The notes under the pieces: generated by a model
Database searches by the model: none
The model's input: only the letters and a program-made list of their open reading frames with translations
What the model was told of the DNA's origin: nothing
IMG/VR virus record: IMGVR_UViG_3300021254_000021
Coordinates: 64,001 to 128,000 of that record
DNA: 64,000 bases
Origin: a virus
Taxonomy: Duplodnaviria > Caudoviricetes
Reading direction: 5' to 3' (one strand)
Shown: piece by piece, positions 7,982 through 59,413 of the stretch
Position numbering within the stretch: the first letter of the stretch is position 1
Layout of the letters: each line of letters starts with the position of its first letter
Made by a program: the position numbers and the translations under genes

Positions 7982-8020
7982 AACCCCTAAGATGTATCTA
8001 ATATCTTAGGGGTTTTCTTT
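7982..8020 (+). terminator. Intrinsic terminator with TATCTA in its loop
   Basis: AACCCCTAAGAT-gtatctaat-ATCTTAGGGGTT-ttctttt. Confidence 0.7.
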
Positions 8021-11739: not shown

Positions 11740-14202
11740 ATGTCTAATTCAACTAACGTAACTAAGCAAGTAGAGACTACTGCTCCCTATACATCTTCTA
11801 CCAATGCTAATTTATTAGCTTGTATGGTGAATACGTCAATCAATGGTGTTTCACCAACTTCTCAATCTATAGTCAGTCGATCTTTAGACTCTACTGATTA
11901 TACAAATCTTGTACAGGCTAAACAGCAGGATGGTATCTTTACCTCTAAGACAGATAAGAAAATCTTTACGATTGATTCTAATTTAGACTTTGAGTTTAAT
12001 CCGATAAAGTCTTTAGAGAGTAATATAGGAATATCTTATAATTATGTCTCTAATTTAGCGGCTGAGGATAAAGATAATCGTGTACAGAAAGATAATATTC
12101 CTGCAAGCCCTTATCCTTCTTATGGCCCAGAGATATATTCAGGTACAAACTCTAATTCACCTGATGTTTTTATTGCTACTCCCGCAAGAAATCCACCTTG
12201 TATTATATCAGAGAGTAGAACAGGGACAGCTTCTTACACACAGATAAATGAGCGTGGTGTCTTTTCCGAAGGGAAAGAGGTAGAGATACGTGTATTAACT
12301 AGTCCTAATAACTATTCCTTTGGTACATCACAGAACTTTGATCAGATAGAGCCCAGAGGATCACAAACACCACAAAGATACTATAACCATAATTCTGGTA
12401 GAACACTTAGCTTTGTAGCCGAGTTCCACCAACAGGAATATCCTTTAGAACCTCTACTCTCTATTGCAGAAAAAGCTCAATATCTTGCACGACCTTATAA
12501 GCATGGTGATTATGCACTAATACCTAAACTGGTAATGGTACAGATTCCCGGACGTGTATTCAGAGGTTATTTGCAGAGTGTGTCTATAAACACTTCTGGT
12601 GATGATTATAGTAACTGGAACTTTATAGATATAAAAAGCAAAGTTGGAACAATGGGTGAACAAGAGGGTTTCTATGGTGGTTATAATTCCAGAGAGTTAG
12701 AACCTATTGGTGGTATTTCTAATGATCGTAAAGACATTATGACGGATAACCAGAATGTTTATTATGGTTTGTCTAAAATGACTATCGACTTTACCCTTCT
12801 TATTGTAGAGGATATTGTTTTAACTACTTATGAAACACAAGAAGAAATAGCAGAGAAAGAAAGAATACAGCAGGAAGAGGAAAGAAAGAGAAAAGAAGAA
12901 TTAGAAAGACAAATTGCAATTGATCAAGCTCGTGGTTATGTAGAATTACATAAAAGTGTAATGGATGGAACATATATAGATGACTGTATCTATGTTGATC
13001 CTAAAACAGGTGAAATAATAGGTGTAAAATTTATAGATTCAGATGAGAATGAAATAGATACTACAAATGGTAGGGAAGGTATTACTTTAACTGAATGGGA
13101 GAAACAACAGGAAATAAAGAAAGGTGATACAGTAGAGCAGAATACAACAGCAGATATTATAGATGCAGGTACACAAGAGGCTTGGAATATTATAAATGAT
13201 TCACAGAGTGTAACTTCTATGCGAACTTACTTAGAGGAACGGTGGGTACAGGAACATCCAGAGCCTCAGACAGGCACACCAGAACACCAAGCATGGGAAG
13301 CCGAAAAAGCTGAATATGAAACAAAACTTGATAATGTAGACTTCTTAGAGGCTGAATATAAACAGAAGGCTATCACAGAAGGGGTTGGAAAAGATAATTC
13401 AGATGTGGCTTATTTTACTAATGGTTCTTTCTATATGCCGGAATCAGGTAAACCACAGACAAATCTTCCATTACCACTAAGTACTTTTTTAAAGACAGAT
13501 ATTAAAAGTACAGAGGATATTCATACTGTGCTTACTAGCATAGAAACAGAAAAATCAGATCCAAATATAGTTCTTAATCAAATAGAAAAAAATGGTTGGG
13601 ATGATTCTTGGTCTTACCACTTATTATGGGAGGTATGTTGTGTAAATGGTGTAGGTATAAAAACACCTACAGCTACAACTAATAAGTATGGCTTACATGA
13701 TTGGCATATACCAAATCCTATATATTTCAATGCTTATAATAGATTTACGGGTTTTATTTTTCAGAAAGGTGATCAAGGTATTCAGATAAGAAATAACTTT
13801 AAAGAGTGTGGTATAGAGATAACAGAGCAAGAGGCTTTACTTTATTTTGAAACAATAAAGGATTCTGGTTATTGTGATAAAGAAAATGATAATGAATGCA
13901 AAATATCTTTTTATACACTAGCAAAGATAACAGACTTTACTAAATTTCTCGTACTTGTAGATGATCAAGGAACTATTTTAAAGACACCAGATAATAGAAT
14001 CCTTCTATTTTTTATGAAAGCTATAGGTGCTGTAAGAAGTGCTTTTTATAGTGGTTTTAAAAAGATTTGTTCAGAAAAAATTACAGAGGATGGTGCAGAG
14101 TTATTTCCAAATAAAAAAAGTGCTTTAGATTTTATGAATACTCGTGTTAGTTCACAAGGTGGCGAAATTAAGTATGCTTATTATTGGGAGTATAAACCAT
14201 GA
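11740..14202 (+). CDS. Tail/baseplate protein (tube-initiator-like central domain)
   Basis: Follows the tape measure; RGSQTPQRYY..SGRTLSF...P.LV.V.IPGRVFRGYLQSVSI resembles tube-fold baseplate proteins. Confidence 0.5.
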   Translation: MSNSTNVTKQVETTAPYTSSTNANLLACMVNTSINGVSPTSQSIVSRSLDSTDYTNLVQAKQQDGIFTSKTDKKIFTIDSNLDFEFNPIKSLESNIGISYNYVSNLAAEDKDNRVQKDNIPASPYPSYGPEIYSGTNSNSPDVFIATPARNPPCIISESRTGTASYTQINERGVFSEGKEVEIRVLTSPNNYSFGTSQNFDQIEPRGSQTPQRYYNHNSGRTLSFVAEFHQQEYPLEPLLSIAEKAQYLARPYKHGDYALIPKLVMVQIPGRVFRGYLQSVSINTSGDDYSNWNFIDIKSKVGTMGEQEGFYGGYNSRELEPIGGISNDRKDIMTDNQNVYYGLSKMTIDFTLLIVEDIVLTTYETQEEIAEKERIQQEEERKRKEELERQIAIDQARGYVELHKSVMDGTYIDDCIYVDPKTGEIIGVKFIDSDENEIDTTNGREGITLTEWEKQQEIKKGDTVEQNTTADIIDAGTQEAWNIINDSQSVTSMRTYLEERWVQEHPEPQTGTPEHQAWEAEKAEYETKLDNVDFLEAEYKQKAITEGVGKDNSDVAYFTNGSFYMPESGKPQTNLPLPLSTFLKTDIKSTEDIHTVLTSIETEKSDPNIVLNQIEKNGWDDSWSYHLLWEVCCVNGVGIKTPTATTNKYGLHDWHIPNPIYFNAYNRFTGFIFQKGDQGIQIRNNFKECGIEITEQEALLYFETIKDSGYCDKENDNECKISFYTLAKITDFTKFLVLVDDQGTILKTPDNRILLFFMKAIGAVRSAFYSGFKKICSEKITEDGAELFPNKKSALDFMNTRVSSQGGEIKYAYYWEYKP

Positions 14203-45301: not shown

Positions 45302-46273
45302 ATGAACAGAATTAACTTTTTAGAAAACAGGGATTTCCTTATTCACTCTACGGCAAGACCTTATGTAGTAGAGCCAGACCATTTGGTTAATCTTGAAATT
45401 ATGCAGGATATGACCATGCTTGTTACTACACAGCGCCAAGAAATCTTTGTTAAAGAGACACCCTTTAAATCCTCTGTTTTACCTATATTGGGGATTACTG
45501 GTTTATTAAAGAAAAAGATGATTGATGGAGAGTCCGCTACTTTAACAGACTCTTTATTAGATTTAATCACACCCATAATGAAGCAGAATATTCAGTCCTT
45601 CATTTTCTTTTTGGACACGGACGAAAAAGAGGCAATCGCTGTCTTTGTTACACCCGTCTTTGATAAGCTCGAACCAGTAACCTTACATAATGGTTATAGT
45701 AATCTTAAACAGTTTTTATGCACTTCATATTTCCCAGTAGAGGAAGATAAAGATTATCATGTTATAGACTTTAACCATGAGCCTAAAGATAAAATCTTTA
45801 AATTAAACTTGGCTCATAAAGATGATCAAACAAAAGAATTTTATCCTATTATTCATAATAATGCACCGATAGCATGGAAAGAGAATTGGGATCAGCGTGC
45901 GTCTATTTATGACAGGGAAAGAGATTTATACATGACCTTACCTAGAAACTATGGTAAGGGTGGGTATAAGGTAGTGGATAAGATTATTCAGCATATAGAC
46001 CACATGATTTCTAAACTGGATATTACACAAGATTACGACAAAGAGTTTAATGAAATGCTAATGGCCAAGTTACCCAATAAGGGTATTGAATATATGATGG
46101 AAGCCTCTTTTGAGGATCATAAATTAGTAACCATCTTAGATAAAATATCATCATCTAAAGAGGATTTAAAGCCATCCGTCGTTCATGCGTTATATAAATG
46201 TTTAGGGTACATGGTAGCTCAAAAATTACATTGCTGTCCTGAATGCAGACATCTCGACGAGGAAACACTTTAA
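45302..46273 (+). CDS. Hypothetical protein
   Basis: 323 aa; AGGAG RBS. Confidence 0.6.
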   Translation: MNRINFLENRDFLIHSTARPYVVEPDHLVNLEIMQDMTMLVTTQRQEIFVKETPFKSSVLPILGITGLLKKKMIDGESATLTDSLLDLITPIMKQNIQSFIFFLDTDEKEAIAVFVTPVFDKLEPVTLHNGYSNLKQFLCTSYFPVEEDKDYHVIDFNHEPKDKIFKLNLAHKDDQTKEFYPIIHNNAPIAWKENWDQRASIYDRERDLYMTLPRNYGKGGYKVVDKIIQHIDHMISKLDITQDYDKEFNEMLMAKLPNKGIEYMMEASFEDHKLVTILDKISSSKEDLKPSVVHALYKCLGYMVAQKLHCCPECRHLDEETL

Positions 46274-46363
46274 AATAATCATAGAGTTATCAATCTCTTA
46301 GCCGTATATACCCCTGTCTGACCCACAGGGGTTTTCTTTTCTGCACAGGAGTGGAATATTGTT

Positions 46364-47800
46364 ATGCTGACAATAGTAAAGTCTATATTATCCTCTACTG
46401 AAGAAAGTAAAGCACTCATTATTTCTTCTATCTTAGAAGAAGCAAGTAAAGATTTAAATCCTCAAGAATTAAAAGTCTTTCAATTCCTTAAACAGGGATA
46501 TGATACATTCTCTCAATTCCAAACTGAGGAATTATTTTTACAGCAGTTCCCAGAATATAGAGCTTCACTTAAAGATATAGCACCCTTAGAGCAGGAATCC
46601 TTAGATTATTATAAAAGAGAGTTTATAGAGAAGCATAAAAGAATTACCCTCTCTAAGAAACTACTTACTATGGCAACTACCATACAACAATCTGGTTTAA
46701 CACCAGATATGGTAGAGTCTCTAAGAGGGGAAGTAAATAATACACAGGAAAACTTCTCTTTGCAGACCTCTAACGTTTTGGACATCTATGATGAGTCTAA
46801 GAAAAAGGGGAACTGTGGAATAAAGACGTATATTCCAGAGATAGACCAATTAGTCGGAACAATAGAGCCCGGCACACTCACCACAATTGTTGGGTATAAT
46901 AAACACGGTAAAACAACGTTTGCTTTAAACATGGCTTATAAAGCCGCTAAAGAAGGAAAGCACGTTGTTTACATTTCCCTTGAGGTGGCAGAGAAGTTTC
47001 TGCTTTATGATTTAATCTCTTTGCATTCTACGGATATGCGATTTGGTATTGACCCGATACCTAGTGATGCAATCCGTTTACTTAATTTAAGTGAACAGCA
47101 GGAAGCAAACTTTAAGAGAGTGGCAGAAGATTTTAACCAGACTATTCGACCAAACTTTGTTATCCTGACAGAAAGGAACTTTAAGGATTTTTCTTACGGG
47201 GAGATTCGAGATGTTCTGTACAGGGTAGATGAGAAAAGAAAGATTGATGCTGTATTTGTGGATCAAGCCAGTTTATTTAAGTTTTACGCTAAAGGGAATA
47301 CAAATAATCTCTATGACGTAATAAATGACTATGTTTCTTTTTTCAGAAAACTTGCTATTTGCTTTAAGGTAGAGAACGGTGTAGATAGACAGATGATTAT
47401 TGTTTTGCTTGCTCAATGCAATAGATCTGGATTTATTAAGGCTCAACAGGCAGGAAAGAAAGATCCCGCTATGGAAGGGAAGTATGATGATACCGCCGTA
47501 GCAGAAGCGAATGAGCTTACTCGTTCTTGCTCTTATCTTTTAACTGTGTATTCCACAGAAGGTATGAGATTATCACATGAAGCTCGTGTTCAGCTACTTA
47601 GAAGCAGATTTGGTCAAACACATGAAGACCCAATTACGGTCAACTTTAATCCAGAGTTTAAACAGTTCGGGGAGATGGAAGATTTAAACCAAACCTCTGT
47701 AAACAACTATTCTTCTGTTTCCTCTTTTGGTTCATTCGTGGACATTAATCCGTCTGACTTAGGATTTAATTTGGGTTCAGTGAATTTAGATGATTTGTAG
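46364..47800 (+). CDS. dnaB: DnaB-like replicative helicase
   Basis: IPEIDQLVG...GYNKHGKTT (Walker A), YISLEV, AVFVD (Walker B), LAQCNR, LRSRFG. Confidence 0.85.
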   Translation: MLTIVKSILSSTEESKALIISSILEEASKDLNPQELKVFQFLKQGYDTFSQFQTEELFLQQFPEYRASLKDIAPLEQESLDYYKREFIEKHKRITLSKKLLTMATTIQQSGLTPDMVESLRGEVNNTQENFSLQTSNVLDIYDESKKKGNCGIKTYIPEIDQLVGTIEPGTLTTIVGYNKHGKTTFALNMAYKAAKEGKHVVYISLEVAEKFLLYDLISLHSTDMRFGIDPIPSDAIRLLNLSEQQEANFKRVAEDFNQTIRPNFVILTERNFKDFSYGEIRDVLYRVDEKRKIDAVFVDQASLFKFYAKGNTNNLYDVINDYVSFFRKLAICFKVENGVDRQMIIVLLAQCNRSGFIKAQQAGKKDPAMEGKYDDTAVAEANELTRSCSYLLTVYSTEGMRLSHEARVQLLRSRFGQTHEDPITVNFNPEFKQFGEMEDLNQTSVNNYSSVSSFGSFVDINPSDLGFNLGSVNLDDL

Positions 47801-47928
47801 TTCTCTAGACCTTTAGCAGTACTGTTGGTTTTAGTGCCCGATGCGGGTTATTCGGTATACCAGTTAAATTAACTTTCTTTGTCGAGGTATGTCACTTAAA
47901 TGAAATGATCTTTCAAAAGACTTGTGGT

Positions 47929-47975
47929 AAAAGAACCTCATTGGCGGGATTACCCATCCAATGAGGTTCTTTTTT
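47929..47975 (+). terminator. 16-bp perfect inverted repeat (terminator and/or IS left-end hairpin)
   Basis: AAAAGAACCTCATTGG...CCAATGAGGTTCTTTT. Confidence 0.65.
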
Positions 47976-48055
47976 AAGTACACTACTAACTGTACAGATT
48001 TCTTTGACCAAAAAGTGATCCACAAGCTCACATGGCTGTATCCCGTGGGTAGTTC

Positions 48056-48136
48056 AATAGGGGATGAATTTAAACACTCAAATCCCCTCACACCAATTTT
48101 ACAAAAATCTTTAACCAACTTTTACGGAGACAGACT
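48056..48136 (+). repeat. Intergenic hairpin-repeat element, copy 1
   Basis: AGGGGAT...ATCCCCT-CACACCAATTTTACAAAAATCTTTAACCAACTTT-RBS. Confidence 0.9.
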
Positions 48137-48361
48137 ATGAAGTGCTTAATTAAGGATATGTACGAAAAAGATTCAAATGGCCTTCCTTTGATCATAGCGG
48201 AAACCAATTCTTTAAAGGAAGCGAGACTCTGGATAGAGGAGAATCGTCGGGGGTGGAAAAATTCTTGTTACGTTGTTTATGGCCGTAACTTTAAAAAGAT
48301 GGCCAAGTTTTCCCAACATTTTCGAGACTCCAAGGGTAACATGAAATGGCTGTATGACTAG
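48137..48361 (+). CDS. Hypothetical protein
   Basis: GGAG RBS supplied by repeat copy 1. Confidence 0.7.
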   Translation: MKCLIKDMYEKDSNGLPLIIAETNSLKEARLWIEENRRGWKNSCYVVYGRNFKKMAKFSQHFRDSKGNMKWLYD

Positions 48362-48367
48362 TCACCA

Positions 48368-48448
48368 TTAAGGGGATAGAGTTAAATACTTAAATCCCCT
48401 GACGCCAATTTTACAAAAATATTTAACCAACTTTAAAGGAGAGACATC
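48368..48448 (+). repeat. Intergenic hairpin-repeat element, copy 2
   Basis: AGGGGAT...ATCCCCT-GACGCCAATTTTACAAAAATATTTAACCAACTTT-AAGGAG. Confidence 0.9.
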
Positions 48449-49717
48449 ATGGCCAATTACACAATCCTCACTAGCATGGTTAATGACTTCAGCAAAAAGA
48501 TCAATCACATTGCCAATAAGTGCTACAAACAGGGTATCCCTTACACCTTCCTTATGAGCGATCCCTATGACAAAGTGGTTGAAGATCATGAGGGTAACAG
48601 CTTTGTCATTAGTGTTACGGACATTGAATTGGACATTCAGTTCAAATTTAACGGTTGGAAAGCTCTTGGTTTGATTCAGAGAAAAGATGGGATTACACAG
48701 TGCTATCTTAAAACACAGGAGTTGATTCAGCAGTATGGAAACACCGATTTTCATTGTGATCATTGCCACAAGCATGTACATCGTAATTCTGTCATTGTCC
48801 TTGAGCATGACAATGGCGAGCGTAAAGTAGTGGGAACATCTTGTGTTAAAGAGTTCACGTGTGGTTTGGACGGAAACCTGATTGCTCAGTTTAATGAATT
48901 TGAGGTTATTTTAGCCAAACGTAATAGCGAATTGCAGATTCTTTTGCAGGGCGAATCTCTGGATGATCTCCCTGTGAGTGTTTTCTGTGAGCAGAATGGT
49001 AGTCCCATTTATAATGTAGAGAGGGTTGTTTCCAGTGCCGTCCGTATAATCAATGCTTATGGTTTTGAACCTTCAAATAGTCTTAATGCTACATGGAAAT
49101 ACATCCATGATACTTATAAAGAGACACATGAGAGTGAGCCTGAAGCTGTTAGGGCTATTGAGTGGATTAAGTCTCTGTCTAATGACGACTTCACAAAGTC
49201 CTCTTACCTGTTCAATCTTAGACAGATTATTGATGCTGATTATTGCACACCCCGTCATTTCGGTTTGTTGGCGTCTTTAATCCCTTCGTTCCGTAAAGAG
49301 GAAGCTAAGAGATTGCAGGCTGAACGTGCTTCTGTTAGTAACCATGTTGGTAACATTGGTGACAGACTTTCTCTCACACTCACTTATACCAAGTCCATCT
49401 CTTATGATTCCCAGTTTGGTGGTGGTTATTTCCACTTTTTCTCTGATGCTGATGGCAATGTGTTTAAGTGGTCAACGAATAAAGGTATGTGTTTCCGTAT
49501 GAATAACCGTACATACAGTCTTGAACAAGGTGCTACGGTTAAGCTGACAGGAACGATTAAAGACCATGATGATTACCGTGGTATGAAACAGACTATAATC
49601 ACTCGTTGCAAGTATGAAGTGCTTACTTCGACGGTTCGTGATGATGCTGAACAAGAGACATCTGACAATAATTCCAGTAGTACAGACCTAGATTCTTTGA
49701 TGCTTTATTGGGCATAA
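48449..49717 (+). CDS. Phage protein with zinc finger and C-terminal OB-fold-like domain
   Basis: CDHC...R...VGTSC; HVGNIGDR...G....F.D..GN.FKW...LTGTIKDH..YRG.KQT.ITRC. Confidence 0.7.
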   Translation: MANYTILTSMVNDFSKKINHIANKCYKQGIPYTFLMSDPYDKVVEDHEGNSFVISVTDIELDIQFKFNGWKALGLIQRKDGITQCYLKTQELIQQYGNTDFHCDHCHKHVHRNSVIVLEHDNGERKVVGTSCVKEFTCGLDGNLIAQFNEFEVILAKRNSELQILLQGESLDDLPVSVFCEQNGSPIYNVERVVSSAVRIINAYGFEPSNSLNATWKYIHDTYKETHESEPEAVRAIEWIKSLSNDDFTKSSYLFNLRQIIDADYCTPRHFGLLASLIPSFRKEEAKRLQAERASVSNHVGNIGDRLSLTLTYTKSISYDSQFGGGYFHFFSDADGNVFKWSTNKGMCFRMNNRTYSLEQGATVKLTGTIKDHDDYRGMKQTIITRCKYEVLTSTVRDDAEQETSDNNSSSTDLDSLMLYWA

Positions 49718-49808
49718 CCCTAATAGGGATTAGAGTTAAATACTTTAATCCCTCACACCAACTTTACAAAAATCTTTCCCTAATGGGGGATGTTTCGGAG
49801 ACTGAATT
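49718..49808 (+). repeat. Intergenic hairpin-repeat element, copy 3
   Basis: AGGGATTA...TAATCCCT-CACACCAACTTTACAAAAATCTTT. Confidence 0.9.
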
Positions 49809-50105
49809 ATGGAACACAACACAAATTATTATGGTGGCGAGATTATTAACCTTATCCATAGCACTCTTGGTCATTCCTACTCTATGAATAGAGGGTGGAC
49901 ATACATTTGGGTTATTGGTGATAAAATAGTGTTTTGTGACTTGAAAGAGAATAATTATGGTGGATGTTTAGAGGTGCATGAGGATGGCCAGTTTAAAGAC
50001 CAGTTTGACTACAATGGGATTTTGGTTGAGGGTGATACCGATTTCACTTTTCCAGAATCACAGAAACAAAGGATTGTGTCTTTCTTAAATCGGTATAAAG
50101 GTTAA
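49809..50105 (+). CDS. Hypothetical protein
   Basis: GGAG RBS; flanked by repeat copies 3 and 4. Confidence 0.7.
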   Translation: MEHNTNYYGGEIINLIHSTLGHSYSMNRGWTYIWVIGDKIVFCDLKENNYGGCLEVHEDGQFKDQFDYNGILVEGDTDFTFPESQKQRIVSFLNRYKG

Positions 50106-50106
50106 A

Positions 50107-50192
50107 CCTAATAGGGGATGAAAAACTTAAATCAAATCCCCTGAGACCAATTTTACAAAAATATTTGACCAACTTTTAGAGGAGACTGTGTT
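50107..50192 (+). repeat. Intergenic hairpin-repeat element, copy 4
   Basis: AGGGGAT...ATCCCCT-GAGACCAATTTTACAAAAATATTTGACCAACTTT-GAGGAG. Confidence 0.9.
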
Positions 50193-50516
50193 ATGGCATA
50201 CATTGAAGATCTTTATGATTGGGTTTGTGAGGCACGTAAACAAATAGAGCAAAGGTTCTCCACCAGTTGTTTGCATGTTAGAAACTTGGATATTTCATCT
50301 AATGATTTTTATGTGCTTTCTTTTGTGGACTCCTCTTACATTTATAAGGTGGAAATATTGGCACAGCCTTTTGTTCCATCTTTGGGAGATCCCATAGATG
50401 AGATTAGATCTATTTATATTACTCGTATTGATATGGATAATGAAACCTTCGATAAGGTAGTGTTTGATAATTGGGAGACTTCCATTGAGGATGCTCTCAA
50501 TTACTTAGCCTCTTAG
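50193..50516 (+). CDS. Hypothetical acidic protein
   Basis: GAGGAG RBS. Confidence 0.7.
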   Translation: MAYIEDLYDWVCEARKQIEQRFSTSCLHVRNLDISSNDFYVLSFVDSSYIYKVEILAQPFVPSLGDPIDEIRSIYITRIDMDNETFDKVVFDNWETSIEDALNYLAS

Positions 50517-50526
50517 GGGGTGTGCT

Positions 50527-50979
50527 ATGGGTTTTGTAGTTGATTTAACAGGACAGAGATTTGGTAAACTTACTGTCTTAGAGCGGGCAGAGGATAGAGT
50601 AACCAAGTCTGGTAAAAAACTCGTGGCATGGTTGTGCAAATGCGACTGTGGTAAAAAATGTGTGATTAAGTCAACCAACCTTAAAAGTGGGAATACCAAA
50701 TCTTGCGGGTGTATAGCCCGCAAGATCAGACGAACAAAGCGTGATACACCCAATAAAAATGCAGAGGACTTTATAGGTAAACGGTTTGGTGTTTTAACCA
50801 TAGAGAAAGAGATTAAGCCTTATCGTTCCCCTAAAGGGGATAAGCACCGTCGTTTCCGATGTAAGTGTTATTGCGGGAAATATAAGGATGTCCGCATAGA
50901 TGAGCTGACTAATGGATCTGTTGTGTCTTGCGGTTGCTTATCTGCGAGGGATCTAGATAAGCTAAGAACCATTTTATAG
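50527..50979 (+). CDS. Two tandem Cys-rich modules typical of phage HNH/AP2 endonuclease N-termini, no nuclease domain
   Basis: DLTGQRFGKLTV...W.CKCDCG...KSCGC and IGKRFGVLTI...CKCYCG...SCGC. Confidence 0.7.
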   Translation: MGFVVDLTGQRFGKLTVLERAEDRVTKSGKKLVAWLCKCDCGKKCVIKSTNLKSGNTKSCGCIARKIRRTKRDTPNKNAEDFIGKRFGVLTIEKEIKPYRSPKGDKHRRFRCKCYCGKYKDVRIDELTNGSVVSCGCLSARDLDKLRTIL

Positions 50980-51042
50980 GGATAGGAAATAAATCAAATT
51001 TCCCCTGAGACCAATTTTACAAAAATTTCAAAGGAGTAAAGA
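50976..51042 (+). repeat. Intergenic hairpin-repeat element, copy 5 (shorter)
   Basis: AGGGA...TTCCCCT-GAGACCAATTTTACAAAAAT-ttc-AAGGAG. Confidence 0.85.
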
Positions 51043-51333
51043 ATGAAGAAATGGCAGAAAAATCCGTGGGCAGTGCCTAATTGTATACCTCCTTATGATG
51101 TTGTGGAATTTGATGAATACGGAAAGAAAATTTATGCTCATTCATACCGTAAGTTTGAAGATGCTTGGGCTCGTTTTCAGAAAGAACCAATAACTAATAA
51201 AGGTTGGATAGAGTTTCGTCGTCTTAATAAAGTGGATGCGGATATGACCACTATTTTTATTCATAATAATAAAGGTATAGAGAATGTAGTTGAATGGCGA
51301 AATCTTGATAAAGTTGGCAAAGTAAAAATTTAA
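51043..51333 (+). CDS. Hypothetical protein
   Basis: AAGGAG RBS. Confidence 0.65.
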   Translation: MKKWQKNPWAVPNCIPPYDVVEFDEYGKKIYAHSYRKFEDAWARFQKEPITNKGWIEFRRLNKVDADMTTIFIHNNKGIENVVEWRNLDKVGKVKI

Positions 51334-51359
51334 CCATTCATTTATAAAGGAGACTATTT

Positions 51360-51602
51360 ATGAAGTGGCATAAAACATCCTCTAAGGATAGACCGGAACG
51401 ATTACAGAAGTGTATTTGTTTGCAGGACTTAAAGACACGTTATTGCAGGTGTTTTATTCGTATTTTTCGGTATAACTACATAAAAGAAATAGATAAAGAG
51501 TATTGGGAAGATGATGATAACCTGTATGCGTTTTCAGACTTTGATGCTTGGGCGGAGTGGAAAGAGGTAGAAGATGACTATTTAGAAAAGTATGGGGGAT
51601 AG
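51360..51602 (+). CDS. DUF551-like small protein (MKWH family)
   Basis: MKWH...RP...C....AW..W.EV. Confidence 0.55.
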   Translation: MKWHKTSSKDRPERLQKCICLQDLKTRYCRCFIRIFRYNYIKEIDKEYWEDDDNLYAFSDFDAWAEWKEVEDDYLEKYGG

Positions 51603-51605
51603 GTT

Positions 51606-52043
51606 ATGAGATGGTACAGCACTAAAGAAAATGTTAAGATAACACAAAATCCGTACTACCTAGTTAAATATATTGACCAGTTTGGTAGAGAAGATATAGC
51701 TGACTGCATTTATAAGAATGATAAATTTATTAATTTGGATAAGATTATTCCAGAAGAATTAAATGAAGTTATTGCATGGTGTCCATTTGAAGAAATAGAA
51801 GAATACCTTAACTCACATAATCTTTGGAGAAACCGAGATGATGAGTGTGATTACTTTAATAACCTTGGAATAATTGTCTCTACTACAGATGATGGAGAGT
51901 CAGTAGTAGCTATCCCGGCCATAGGTAAAGTGATAAACGGTGAAAGAAGATTCTATGAGTTGTATGAAGATGGATTGCCTGTTGGTGTAGTTTATGGTTG
52001 GGTAGAAATTGGTGATATTTGGACAATCTTAGATAGAGGTTAG
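51606..52043 (+). CDS. DUF551-like protein, possibly two units
   Basis: MRWY...VIAWCPFEEI and ...VYGWVEIGDI. Confidence 0.55.
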   Translation: MRWYSTKENVKITQNPYYLVKYIDQFGREDIADCIYKNDKFINLDKIIPEELNEVIAWCPFEEIEEYLNSHNLWRNRDDECDYFNNLGIIVSTTDDGESVVAIPAIGKVINGERRFYELYEDGLPVGVVYGWVEIGDIWTILDRG

Positions 52044-52044
52044 T

Positions 52045-52287
52045 ATGATTGATAAGAACCACTGGAAAATAGCTTTTGCCTTCAATCCTAAGAAAACTTA
52101 CACAGAATTAAAATGTAAATTTTTCTCTGATCCAGATTTCCGTAATGAGGTATTAGATTCCATTCCAGAAGATAAAATGAAAGAGATGAAGGAAACTTAT
52201 CTGGCAACTTCCAAATTTAAAAATTTAACTTTTGAAGAATGGTTTGACTTTGTTAGACGTACAGGAATGATAATTCCTTCAGCATAA
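52045..52287 (+). CDS. Hypothetical protein
   Basis: Tightly packed ORF with GAGG RBS. Confidence 0.55.
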   Translation: MIDKNHWKIAFAFNPKKTYTELKCKFFSDPDFRNEVLDSIPEDKMKEMKETYLATSKFKNLTFEEWFDFVRRTGMIIPSA

Positions 52288-52298
52288 AGGAACAAATT

Positions 52299-52577
52299 AT
52301 GAAACAGTTTCGATATTGTTTGATGATCTTTAAAAGATCAGATATGGACACACCAAACATTAAGTATGAATACATCCACTTTAAGAAAGCGGATGATGAG
52401 GAGGCTATTGCGTATGCAGAGCAATACAGCAAAGAGCATATAGGTTATGTTATTAGGCTAAGATTAAGAAGATGGTGCAAAGAGCTAAATAAAGTAGAGT
52501 GGAGTACAATCATTAGTTTTTACAATGGTCGTATCTTCAGTAACAGCTTAATCTTTAAAACAAAAGGGTATTGGTGA
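52299..52577 (+). CDS. Hypothetical protein
   Basis: AAGGA RBS. Confidence 0.55.
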   Translation: MKQFRYCLMIFKRSDMDTPNIKYEYIHFKKADDEEAIAYAEQYSKEHIGYVIRLRLRRWCKELNKVEWSTIISFYNGRIFSNSLIFKTKGYW

Positions 52578-52584
52578 ATAAGAG

Positions 52585-59197: not shown

Positions 59198-59231
59198 AAA
59201 AAGCCTACTGAATTATTCAGTAGGCTTTTTT
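59198..59231 (+). terminator. Intrinsic (bidirectional-looking) terminator
   Basis: AAAAAGCCTACTGAA-tta-TTCAGTAGGCTTTTT. Confidence 0.85.
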
Positions 59232-59413
59232 ATTGTTGTTAGCTTTTGTGTTACGGTTGAGTGAGTTGGACACACTTAAAAGAAAATTGTCTAAGAGAAT
59301 CATTGAGTTAGACGAATCCATCCTAGGGGATGAAAAAAGGCTACCTTTTTGGTAGCCTTTCGCGTATATACCTCTTGGAAGTTGTTACTATTTATAGCGT
59401 AGGAGCAAATCAC

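Follow-up and report, generated by a model that had tools for sequence, protein, structure and literature searches.

A repeated intergenic element is present in five copies between positions 48056 and 51042 of the window, which is the 64,000-nucleotide stretch of viral DNA analysed here (bases 64001-128000 of a 252,372-bp IMG/VR virus record). Each copy consists of an inverted repeat with G-rich and C-rich arms (the dyad), a 16-nucleotide (nt) box at a fixed distance downstream, and a ribosome binding site that serves the next gene. We propose that this element is a promoter of a non-sigma70 type combined with a binding site for a regulator, that it drives accessory genes, and that it doubles as a patch of homology through which gene cassettes may be shuffled. 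We give this explanation a probability of roughly 0.5.

Architecture of the element

The box, CCAAYTTTACAAAAAT, has five exact matches in the window, all of which are on the + strand (Table 1). Five other matches appear in the window when up to three mismatches are permitted, and none of them is a genuine copy. Genome-wide there are 29 copies with no more than two mismatches, and there are none on the - strand. A covariance model trained on 28 genome copies recovers exactly the five copies in the window, with scores of 56-79 bits and E-values of at most 5e-10, and nothing else in the window rises above noise. Beyond the window, this model recovers the remaining genome copies together with two weak further matches, as well as three copies (36-41 bits) in L138, a 7,945-bp metagenome contig that is approximately 70% identical to and syntenic with window positions 45598-52578. 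All comparisons with a relative are based on this one genome piece. These additional hits also are exclusively on the + strand. Both searches therefore support the five copies proposed in the original prediction, which was made from the sequence of the window alone and had captured part of a family of 29.

When anchored on the box, the alignment of all copies is free of gaps. From 5' to 3', the parts are a TAA that usually is the stop codon of the upstream gene, the arm GGGGAT, 16 variable bases, the arm ATCCCC, a 5-nt linker with the pattern T-S-A-S-A, the box, an optional half-box, AAGGAG, and the ATG start codon. The two arms are found in 26 of the 28 aligned copies, the distance from G-run to C-run is 20 nt in 21 of 27, and the distance from C-run to the TTTA of the box is 10 nt in 25 of 27. 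About half of the copies have a second half-box, ACCAAYTTT, 22 nt downstream of the first. Across 28 copies, nucleotide identity is 91% in the box, 46% in the tail and 38% in the loop. Two representatives, namely the copy at genome 210096 and the first copy in L138, lack the 5' arm, and in both the C-run and the box stay in register.

The element is closely tied to the gene that follows it. A GGAG is located 2-27 nt after the box in every copy that has a gene, and the end of the box is no more than 35 nt away from the ATG in 27 of the 29 copies. In seven of the 29, the distance to the upstream stop codon exceeds 100 nt. The short distance between box and start codon and the often distant upstream stop codon indicate that the element belongs to the downstream gene. 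The anatomy originally described for the window copies is also borne out, wherein the hairpin starts no more than 7 nt from the preceding stop codon and the copies end in a Shine-Dalgarno site and an ATG. Likewise, the extended stem noticed in copy 3 is genuine (Table 1).

A search of window positions 47500-52000 against Rfam (E <= 5) reveals no family that matches any of the elements. Two complete elements are found in tandem at genome 222563 and 222679, 116 nt apart and with no open reading frame (ORF) between them, which looks like an emptied cassette. The 16-nt box could be used as a marker both of cassette boundaries and of related phages in metagenomes.

Evidence for a proposed transcription start signal

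The first copy of a cluster is found 17-120 nt behind a strong intrinsic terminator in the window array, at five other places in the genome, and in L138. The window array starts 80 nt past the terminator of a DnaB-like helicase gene, and this terminator ends the upstream transcription unit right before the first element. The genome copies at 11939, 201229, 210096, 221616 and 236546 are located 17-62 nt behind perfect GC hairpins with T-runs. No sigma70-type promoters were found in the intervals between terminator and element. Moreover, there are 51 sigma70-like sites in the region, which is below the 66.8 expected from shuffling, and such sites are neither enriched nor biased toward one strand genome-wide. 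A transcription unit that begins behind a terminator requires its own start signal. The element is the sole conserved candidate for this role, which suggests that it acts as a promoter.

The element itself does not have the features of a Rho-independent terminator, given that its loop is 16 nt long and no U-tract follows the stem, whereas the real terminators of this genome are GC hairpins followed by a T-run. Nor is the element a sigma70 promoter, given the absence of a -10 hexamer 16-18 nt past TTTACA. The original prediction had set aside both possibilities for want of a U-tract and of a usable -10 box, and we agree. Nevertheless, TTTACA in the core of the box is the early -35 hexamer of T4-type phages, which has been reported as GTTTAC (PMC1524935) and as TTTACW (PMC4122927). 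In addition, TACAAAAA in the box matches six of the eight positions of the T4 late element TATAAATA (positions -13 to -6; PMC1524935), and TATAAAAA is present in two copies. If the box were read in this late-type manner, a conserved TTT-purine would be located at the expected +1, and the ribosome binding site never starts earlier than this point.

We infer that the box and the dyad at a fixed distance upstream of it together form the start signal for transcription of the downstream accessory gene or gene block, and that this signal acts mainly on DNA. The reader would be host RNA polymerase redirected by a phage factor, perhaps a divergent sigma-like protein or a dimeric activator bound to the dyad, and transcription would probably start at the purine 5 nt after the box. 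The approximately 65-90 bp of near-identical sequence beside many unrelated genes may also serve as a homology patch for the general recombination machinery of the phage. Recombination at the element would then insert, delete or replace single cassettes, each of which carries its own stop codon, start signal and ribosome binding site.

If the box is a promoter, then an uncultured rumen jumbo phage would have a regulon of about 30 fast-evolving accessory genes. This putative regulon includes ORFans, an amidoligase/GATase/GGACT set, an ADP-ribosylglycohydrolase, a single-stranded DNA-binding protein (SSB) and the phage Cascade genes. With such a system, the T4 lineage would have an undescribed means of diverting host RNA polymerase. 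The element would also extend, beyond classical sigma70 promoters, the idea proposed for PeSL (promoter-early stem-loop) elements that expression signals can double as recombination handles. A bolder possibility is that the element is a phage promoter of a new class and that this T4-like jumbo phage has dispensed with sigma70 early promoters of the host type. A factor such as an extracytoplasmic function (ECF)-like sigma, or possibly a virion-delivered dimer bound to the dyad, would steer host polymerase to some 30 accessory units that include the Cascade operon, and the likeness between the arms and the CRISPR repeat may have let mini-arrays and solo repeats recombine into the system. We view this fuller scenario as speculative and rather doubtful in its entirety.

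Several observations weigh against a promoter function. The hexamer 16-18 nt after TTTACA is never TAnnnT, and the ribosome binding site occupies this spot. The 8-mers of the form TAYAAAWA are almost confined to the boxes, and thus the resemblance to late promoters has no independent support. MotA (PF09158), AsiA (PF09010) and sigma region 4 were not detected in the genome. A search of this 94%-complete genome for a phage RNA polymerase, either T7-like or multisubunit, with PF00940 and PF00562 gave no match, wherein the negative for PF00940 is weak in that the control matched nothing anywhere. This result disfavours promoters of the T7-like, N4-like (hairpin) and phiKZ-like kinds, which require a polymerase encoded by the phage. 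The sigma-like protein that is a candidate factor could equally serve a second class of motif, TATCTAW, which is described below. Furthermore, the orthologue of copy 5 in L138 has five changes in its 17-nt box while the flanking gene is 92-95% identical, which indicates that constraint on the box is not uniform. Finally, insertions and deletions at element boundaries are partly expected by chance in the one relative, as elements are located at nearly every junction.

Candidate transcription factor and a second motif

A divergent sigma-like protein of 202 amino acids is encoded elsewhere in the genome (Table 1), and it exhibits weak matches to Sigma70_r2 and to the ECF-type sigma-70 family model TIGR02937. 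In a structure model with a predicted local distance difference test (pLDDT) score of 76, the N-terminal domain resembles ECF sigma region 2, and the alpha/beta domain at the C-terminus differs from a classical region 4. There are about 30 homologues of this protein in other assemblies, with 43-76% identity, and they are found on contigs of up to 226 kb.

There are approximately 28 genome sites for the second intergenic motif TATCTAW, examples of which are located at window positions 7995, 4933, 30074, 31435 and 58632. They are found 39-120 nt upstream of the genes for portal, tail-tube, tape-measure-like and NrdD proteins, among other genes. In several cases, the motif resides within the loop of a terminator hairpin or just before it. 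We consider TATCTAW a candidate for a second promoter class, predicted to be built into terminators. The leaders of the CRISPR arrays carry TACCTAAG.

Comparison with known elements

The original prediction likened the array to the PeSL cassettes of T4-type phages, and this is still the best comparison available. The PeSL and PmSL elements of RB49/phi1, T4/PST and KVP40/nt-1 (PMC2839356, PMC4122927) are the closest known systems. Like the element described here, a PeSL is an intergenic unit between an upstream stop codon and a downstream ATG in plastic regions, it is present in many copies, and its cargo consists of ORFans. Both have a G-run/C-run stem-loop (-5.7 to -15.8 kcal/mol in the window), a TTTACW-type hexamer, and a ribosome binding site at the 3' end. 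Both are associated with the gain, loss and replacement of cassettes between related phages (here one relative and an element-dense array), and neither involves a dedicated recombinase.

However, the pair of -35 and -10 hexamers, about 17 nt apart, that defines a PeSL is not found here, since the sigma70 -10 is missing at 16-18 nt. The conserved core is instead a box of 16-18 nt that is unknown in PeSLs. The spacing between arms and box is rigid, whereas the stem-loops of PeSLs vary in position, and a stem-loop with a 16-nt loop is a poor candidate for a terminator. Further traits ascribed to PeSLs are termination or attenuation of transcription at the stem-loop and the formation of mini-circles when elements recombine with each other. 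The duplicated half-box, present 22 nt downstream in roughly half of the copies, is a further difference. Judged by its sequence features, the element is a PeSL-like variant and not a member of the PeSL group.

The late promoters of T4, which depend on gp55, gp33 and gp45 (PMC1524935), share with the element the 6/8 match, a purine at the would-be +1, and a small protein that resembles sigma region 2. In contrast, the elements are located in front of accessory genes rather than structural genes, and the T4 late promoter lacks the 8-10 further conserved bases and the dyad that are found upstream here. Similarly, the T4 middle promoters that are controlled by MotA and AsiA (PMC1524935) have a phage-specific upstream box that replaces -35 recognition at pre-late genes. 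Were the final six bases of the box to act as a -10 element, the 3' arm of the dyad would be located near -30. Neither the TGCTT box, which is located at -30 in these middle promoters, nor a TAnnnT hexamer at a distance of 11-13 nt is present in the element.

Other arrangements were considered and rejected. A bipartite promoter with GGGGAT as the -35 element and TCCCCT as the -10 element has suitable spacing, but there is no rationale for its mirror symmetry and no region 4 is detectable in the sigma-like protein. Promoters of the Bacteroidota type (-7/-33) fit poorly on either strand, and the Shine-Dalgarno sites and spanin genes suggest another Gram-negative host. The sigma54 and sigma28 consensus sequences do not fit. 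Recognition of the dyad by Cas6e is disfavoured by a stem polarity that is opposite to that of the CRISPR repeat and by a loop that is four times longer.

Cargo genes and cassette differences

The genes downstream of the element are accessory throughout the genome. They include ORFans, GGACT (twice), GATase, amidoligase and ADP-ribosylglycohydrolase genes, as well as genes for a DnaJ-domain protein, for SSB, and for the Cas8e-like protein that is encoded first in the phage Cascade operon. The cargo in the window had been described as unrelated from gene to gene, and this is confirmed by a set of ORFans, one protein of PHROG 2319 and an HNH-endonuclease-like gene.

The original prediction had suggested, as a check, a comparison of relatives for genes gained or lost at the boundaries of the repeats, and such differences are seen in the single relative L138. 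There, the helicase gene and its terminator are followed directly by the orthologue of copy 2 and a gene of 420 amino acids, and copy 1 and the 74-amino-acid gene are absent. The protein product of 422 amino acids in the window has an orthologue in L138 that is 71% identical. The orthologue of copy 2 retains the box and tail, which are better conserved than the surrounding coding DNA (about 70% identical), and a true terminator has replaced the hairpin. The slot of cassette 3 in L138 has its own element and an unrelated ORFan of 93 amino acids, as compared with copy 3 and the 98-amino-acid gene in the window. At the position of the HNH gene there is instead a TnpB gene with two small ORFs. This gene, which lies inside the array at L138:4191-5927, encodes a TnpB of 578 amino acids with Cas12f1-like TNB and OrfB_IS605 domains.

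A 10-mer from the 3' end of the 74-amino-acid gene, ATGGCTGTAT (window 48347-48356), recurs upstream of copy 1 at 48031-48040 and is followed there by weaker similarity. This recurrence may be the footprint of a cassette insertion.

Alternative explanations

The original prediction favoured, among other ideas, a signal at the RNA level, wherein the hairpin and the G-poor, A/U-rich box are transcribed from upstream and act as part of a leader. Variants of this idea include an endonuclease processing site, cleavage at which would give the upstream message a 3' hairpin, a ribosome standby site or translational enhancer, and an antitermination site similar to boxB/boxA. The tail of the element may be comparable to A/U-rich translational enhancer leaders, and the order of a hairpin followed by a U-rich box is reminiscent of boxB and boxA in rrn operons. 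The hairpin begins at the stop codon, and every fold leaves the G-poor box single-stranded. Three copies (window 49758, genome 202426 and genome 222563) have long perfect stems, and thus pairing may matter at least sometimes. A hairpin in the leader of copy 3 that resembles the CRISPR repeat makes RNA processing plausible in leaders of this type. However, the covariation that had been proposed as a check was not found, in that pairing at inner stem positions in a fixed-register test is no more common than in shuffled controls. The outer five to seven stem pairs are nearly invariant and therefore uninformative on pairing, and the RNA of neither strand is favoured, with similar numbers of G-U wobble (11) and A-C (9) pairs. 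The hairpin of copy 5 is unstable, and its fold is no more favourable than that of shuffled sequence. The elements in L138 and at genome 210096 can do without the hairpin, and there is no match to an Rfam family. A fixed loop length combined with a nearly random loop sequence is not required by RNA folding and points to DNA recognition. Such conservation of length without conservation of sequence is consistent with constraint imposed by a protein that would contact both arms and the box. Moreover, six first-in-cluster copies are located directly behind strong terminators, where little read-through RNA is expected, and this favours a start signal over a site inside such RNA. An RNA-level function consequently seems unlikely to us, although it deserves to be kept in mind. 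A different transcript would result if the box were a promoter in the antisense direction. On the - strand, its core TAAART follows a T-run and a G and constitutes a good -10 hexamer, from which a hairpin-capped RNA would start at the base of the hairpin and run over the 3' end of the upstream gene. The invariant positions of the box would correspond to -12, -11, -10, -9 and -7, with the variable Y at -8. The constant 10-nt distance between box and hairpin would set +1 at the base of the stem, and several upstream terminators appear bidirectional. Of the five window copies, copy 2 alone passes a simple consensus scan of the - strand (48437 to 48408). The TG is one position off for an extended -10, and the conserved tail, the linkage to the ribosome binding site, and the position behind terminators are left unexplained. 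This reading ranks lower in our view, given the coupling of the element to the downstream start rather than to the end of the upstream gene and the lack of a conserved -35, and we regard it as quite improbable.

Two further possibilities emphasize recombination at the expense of regulation. The dyad could be a folded site similar to the attC sites of integrons that is cut by a dedicated recombinase. Like attC, it combines conserved arms and a variable centre in an imperfect inverted repeat, and it is repeated between single-gene cassettes in one orientation. In contrast to attC, the element is located at the 5' end of the cassette and carries the expression signals of the downstream gene, including its ribosome binding site, and conservation peaks in the box, outside of the dyad. 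There is also no integrase to act on it, since no tyrosine recombinase (PF00589) was found in the genome and the sole serine recombinase is the TnpA of an IS607. The dedicated site-specific recombination system envisaged in the original prediction is therefore unlikely, and the integron-like version of it strikes us as extremely improbable. Given the lack of a tyrosine recombinase, a simpler mechanism is that elements exchange by homologous recombination, which has been proposed for PeSLs (PMC2839356). Perhaps the element does little regulation and is mainly a scar of recombination or a patch of homology, such as a former PeSL that lost its -10 and whose copies resemble each other through recent spread and gene conversion. 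A T4-type -35 hexamer and a G/C stem-loop without a -10 are reminiscent of the 'degraded' half-PeSLs of phage nt-1 (PMC4122927). Identity between distant copies reaches 90% over 88 nt, and loop sequences group into families related by descent. The tandem pair of elements without a gene and the 10-nt piece repeated upstream of copy 1 also agree with this possibility. However, the far higher identity of the box relative to the loop and tail indicates selection on the box rather than recent copying of whole units, and the box survives in a relative that is about 70% identical. In addition, the units behind terminators would have no start signal. We consider a scar of this kind improbable.

Genome, host and search for relatives

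The source of the window is an uncultured T4-like rumen jumbo phage. Its T4-type markers include the T4 baseplate domain PF12322, a portal, a tail tube and spanins of the Rz/Rz1 type. The record is estimated by CheckV to be 94% complete. A 140-bp repeat with 98.6% identity is found at both ends (genome 1-140 and 252233-252372). This is compatible with a terminally redundant or a circularly assembled genome that is nearly complete, and the record is labelled linear. By a crude gene call of the whole genome, 292 of the 306 genes are on the + strand. Judging by the spanin genes and the strength of the Shine-Dalgarno sites, the host is probably a Gram-negative bacterium outside the Bacteroidota. 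A search with the CRISPR repeat of the phage, made to infer the host, matched only unrelated genomes.

A megablast search against the phage collection gave no match, and protein queries (the helicase, the 422-amino-acid protein and the sigma-like protein) against viral and prokaryote genome collections recovered distant relatives or none. Among viral contigs, the 16-nt box alone gave single chance matches only, and the box together with the C-run gave zero matches. There are 22 matches to the box among metagenome contigs, of which 21 are due to chance and one is the true relative, L138.

Features of the array

Table 1. Predicted features of the window array and the candidate factor. Coordinates are window positions unless labelled as genome positions.
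Feature	Coordinates	Strand	Remarks
DnaB-like helicase gene	46364-47800		matches PHROG 19; followed by the terminator below
Strong intrinsic terminator	47929..47981	+	hairpin 47929-47975, -27.4 kcal/mol, z -6.3, then six U
Element copy 1	48056..48136	+	dyad 48059-48088, box 48093-48108, second half-box, Shine-Dalgarno site; -10.0 kcal/mol; 77.1 bits
Cargo 1, 74-amino-acid ORFan	48137..48361	+	ATG 48137; no family match
Element copy 2	48368..48448	+	box 48405-48420; -13.2 kcal/mol; 78.7 bits
Cargo 2, 422-amino-acid protein	48449..49717	+	PHROG 2319 of unknown function, E 2.4e-49
Element copy 3	49718..49808	+	12-bp stem 49725-49753, box 49758-49773; -15.8 kcal/mol; 56.1 bits
Cargo 3, 98-amino-acid ORFan	49809..50105	+	no family match
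Element copy 4	50107..50192	+	box 50147-50162; -10.8 kcal/mol; 76.3 bits
Cargo 4a, 107-amino-acid ORFan	50193-50516	+	
Cargo 4b, 150-amino-acid HNH-endonuclease-like gene	50527-50979	+	PHROG 374, E 8.6e-34; without its own element
Element copy 5, short form without second half-box	50976..51042	+	box 51011-51026; weak hairpin, -5.7 kcal/mol, z +0.4; 64.7 bits
Cargo 5, 96-amino-acid ORFan	51043..51333	+	no family match
Tail-only partial copy	51324..51359	+	leader and ribosome binding site like second half-box; no dyad or box; below detection by the covariance model
Divergent sigma-like protein, 202 amino acids	genome 217486-218094		between spanin genes and T4-type baseplate gene

Two partial copies had also been predicted. 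The tail-only copy that follows copy 5 is genuine as judged by direct reading of the sequence. The other, at 59323-59336, is merely the ribosome binding site and ATG of the ORF at 59330, and the covariance model does not respond to it. Upstream of this ORF, at window 59198-59230, there is a perfect 15-bp hairpin between an A-run and a T-run, which constitutes a bidirectional terminator. No recognised start signal is located between this terminator and the ORF.

Relationship to CRISPR repeats

A solo degenerate copy of the type I-E CRISPR repeat of this same phage is found at window 49774-49800, in the leader of copy 3, and another is found at genome 225798-225825. In both cases it is located between the box and the ribosome binding site, and it consists of a C-run, a short loop, a G-run and ATGTT(T/C)C. 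If Cas6e cuts these solo repeats, then both mRNAs would be trimmed to a short leader.

The arms of the dyad resemble the two halves of the type I-E repeat with their order swapped. This shared sequence may have guided the interleaving of CRISPR arrays and solo repeats with gene blocks at junctions. At genome 230481-230540, the element in front of the Cas8e-like gene has a 5' arm, GGGGGAT, that is provided in exact register by the final repeat of a CRISPR mini-array.

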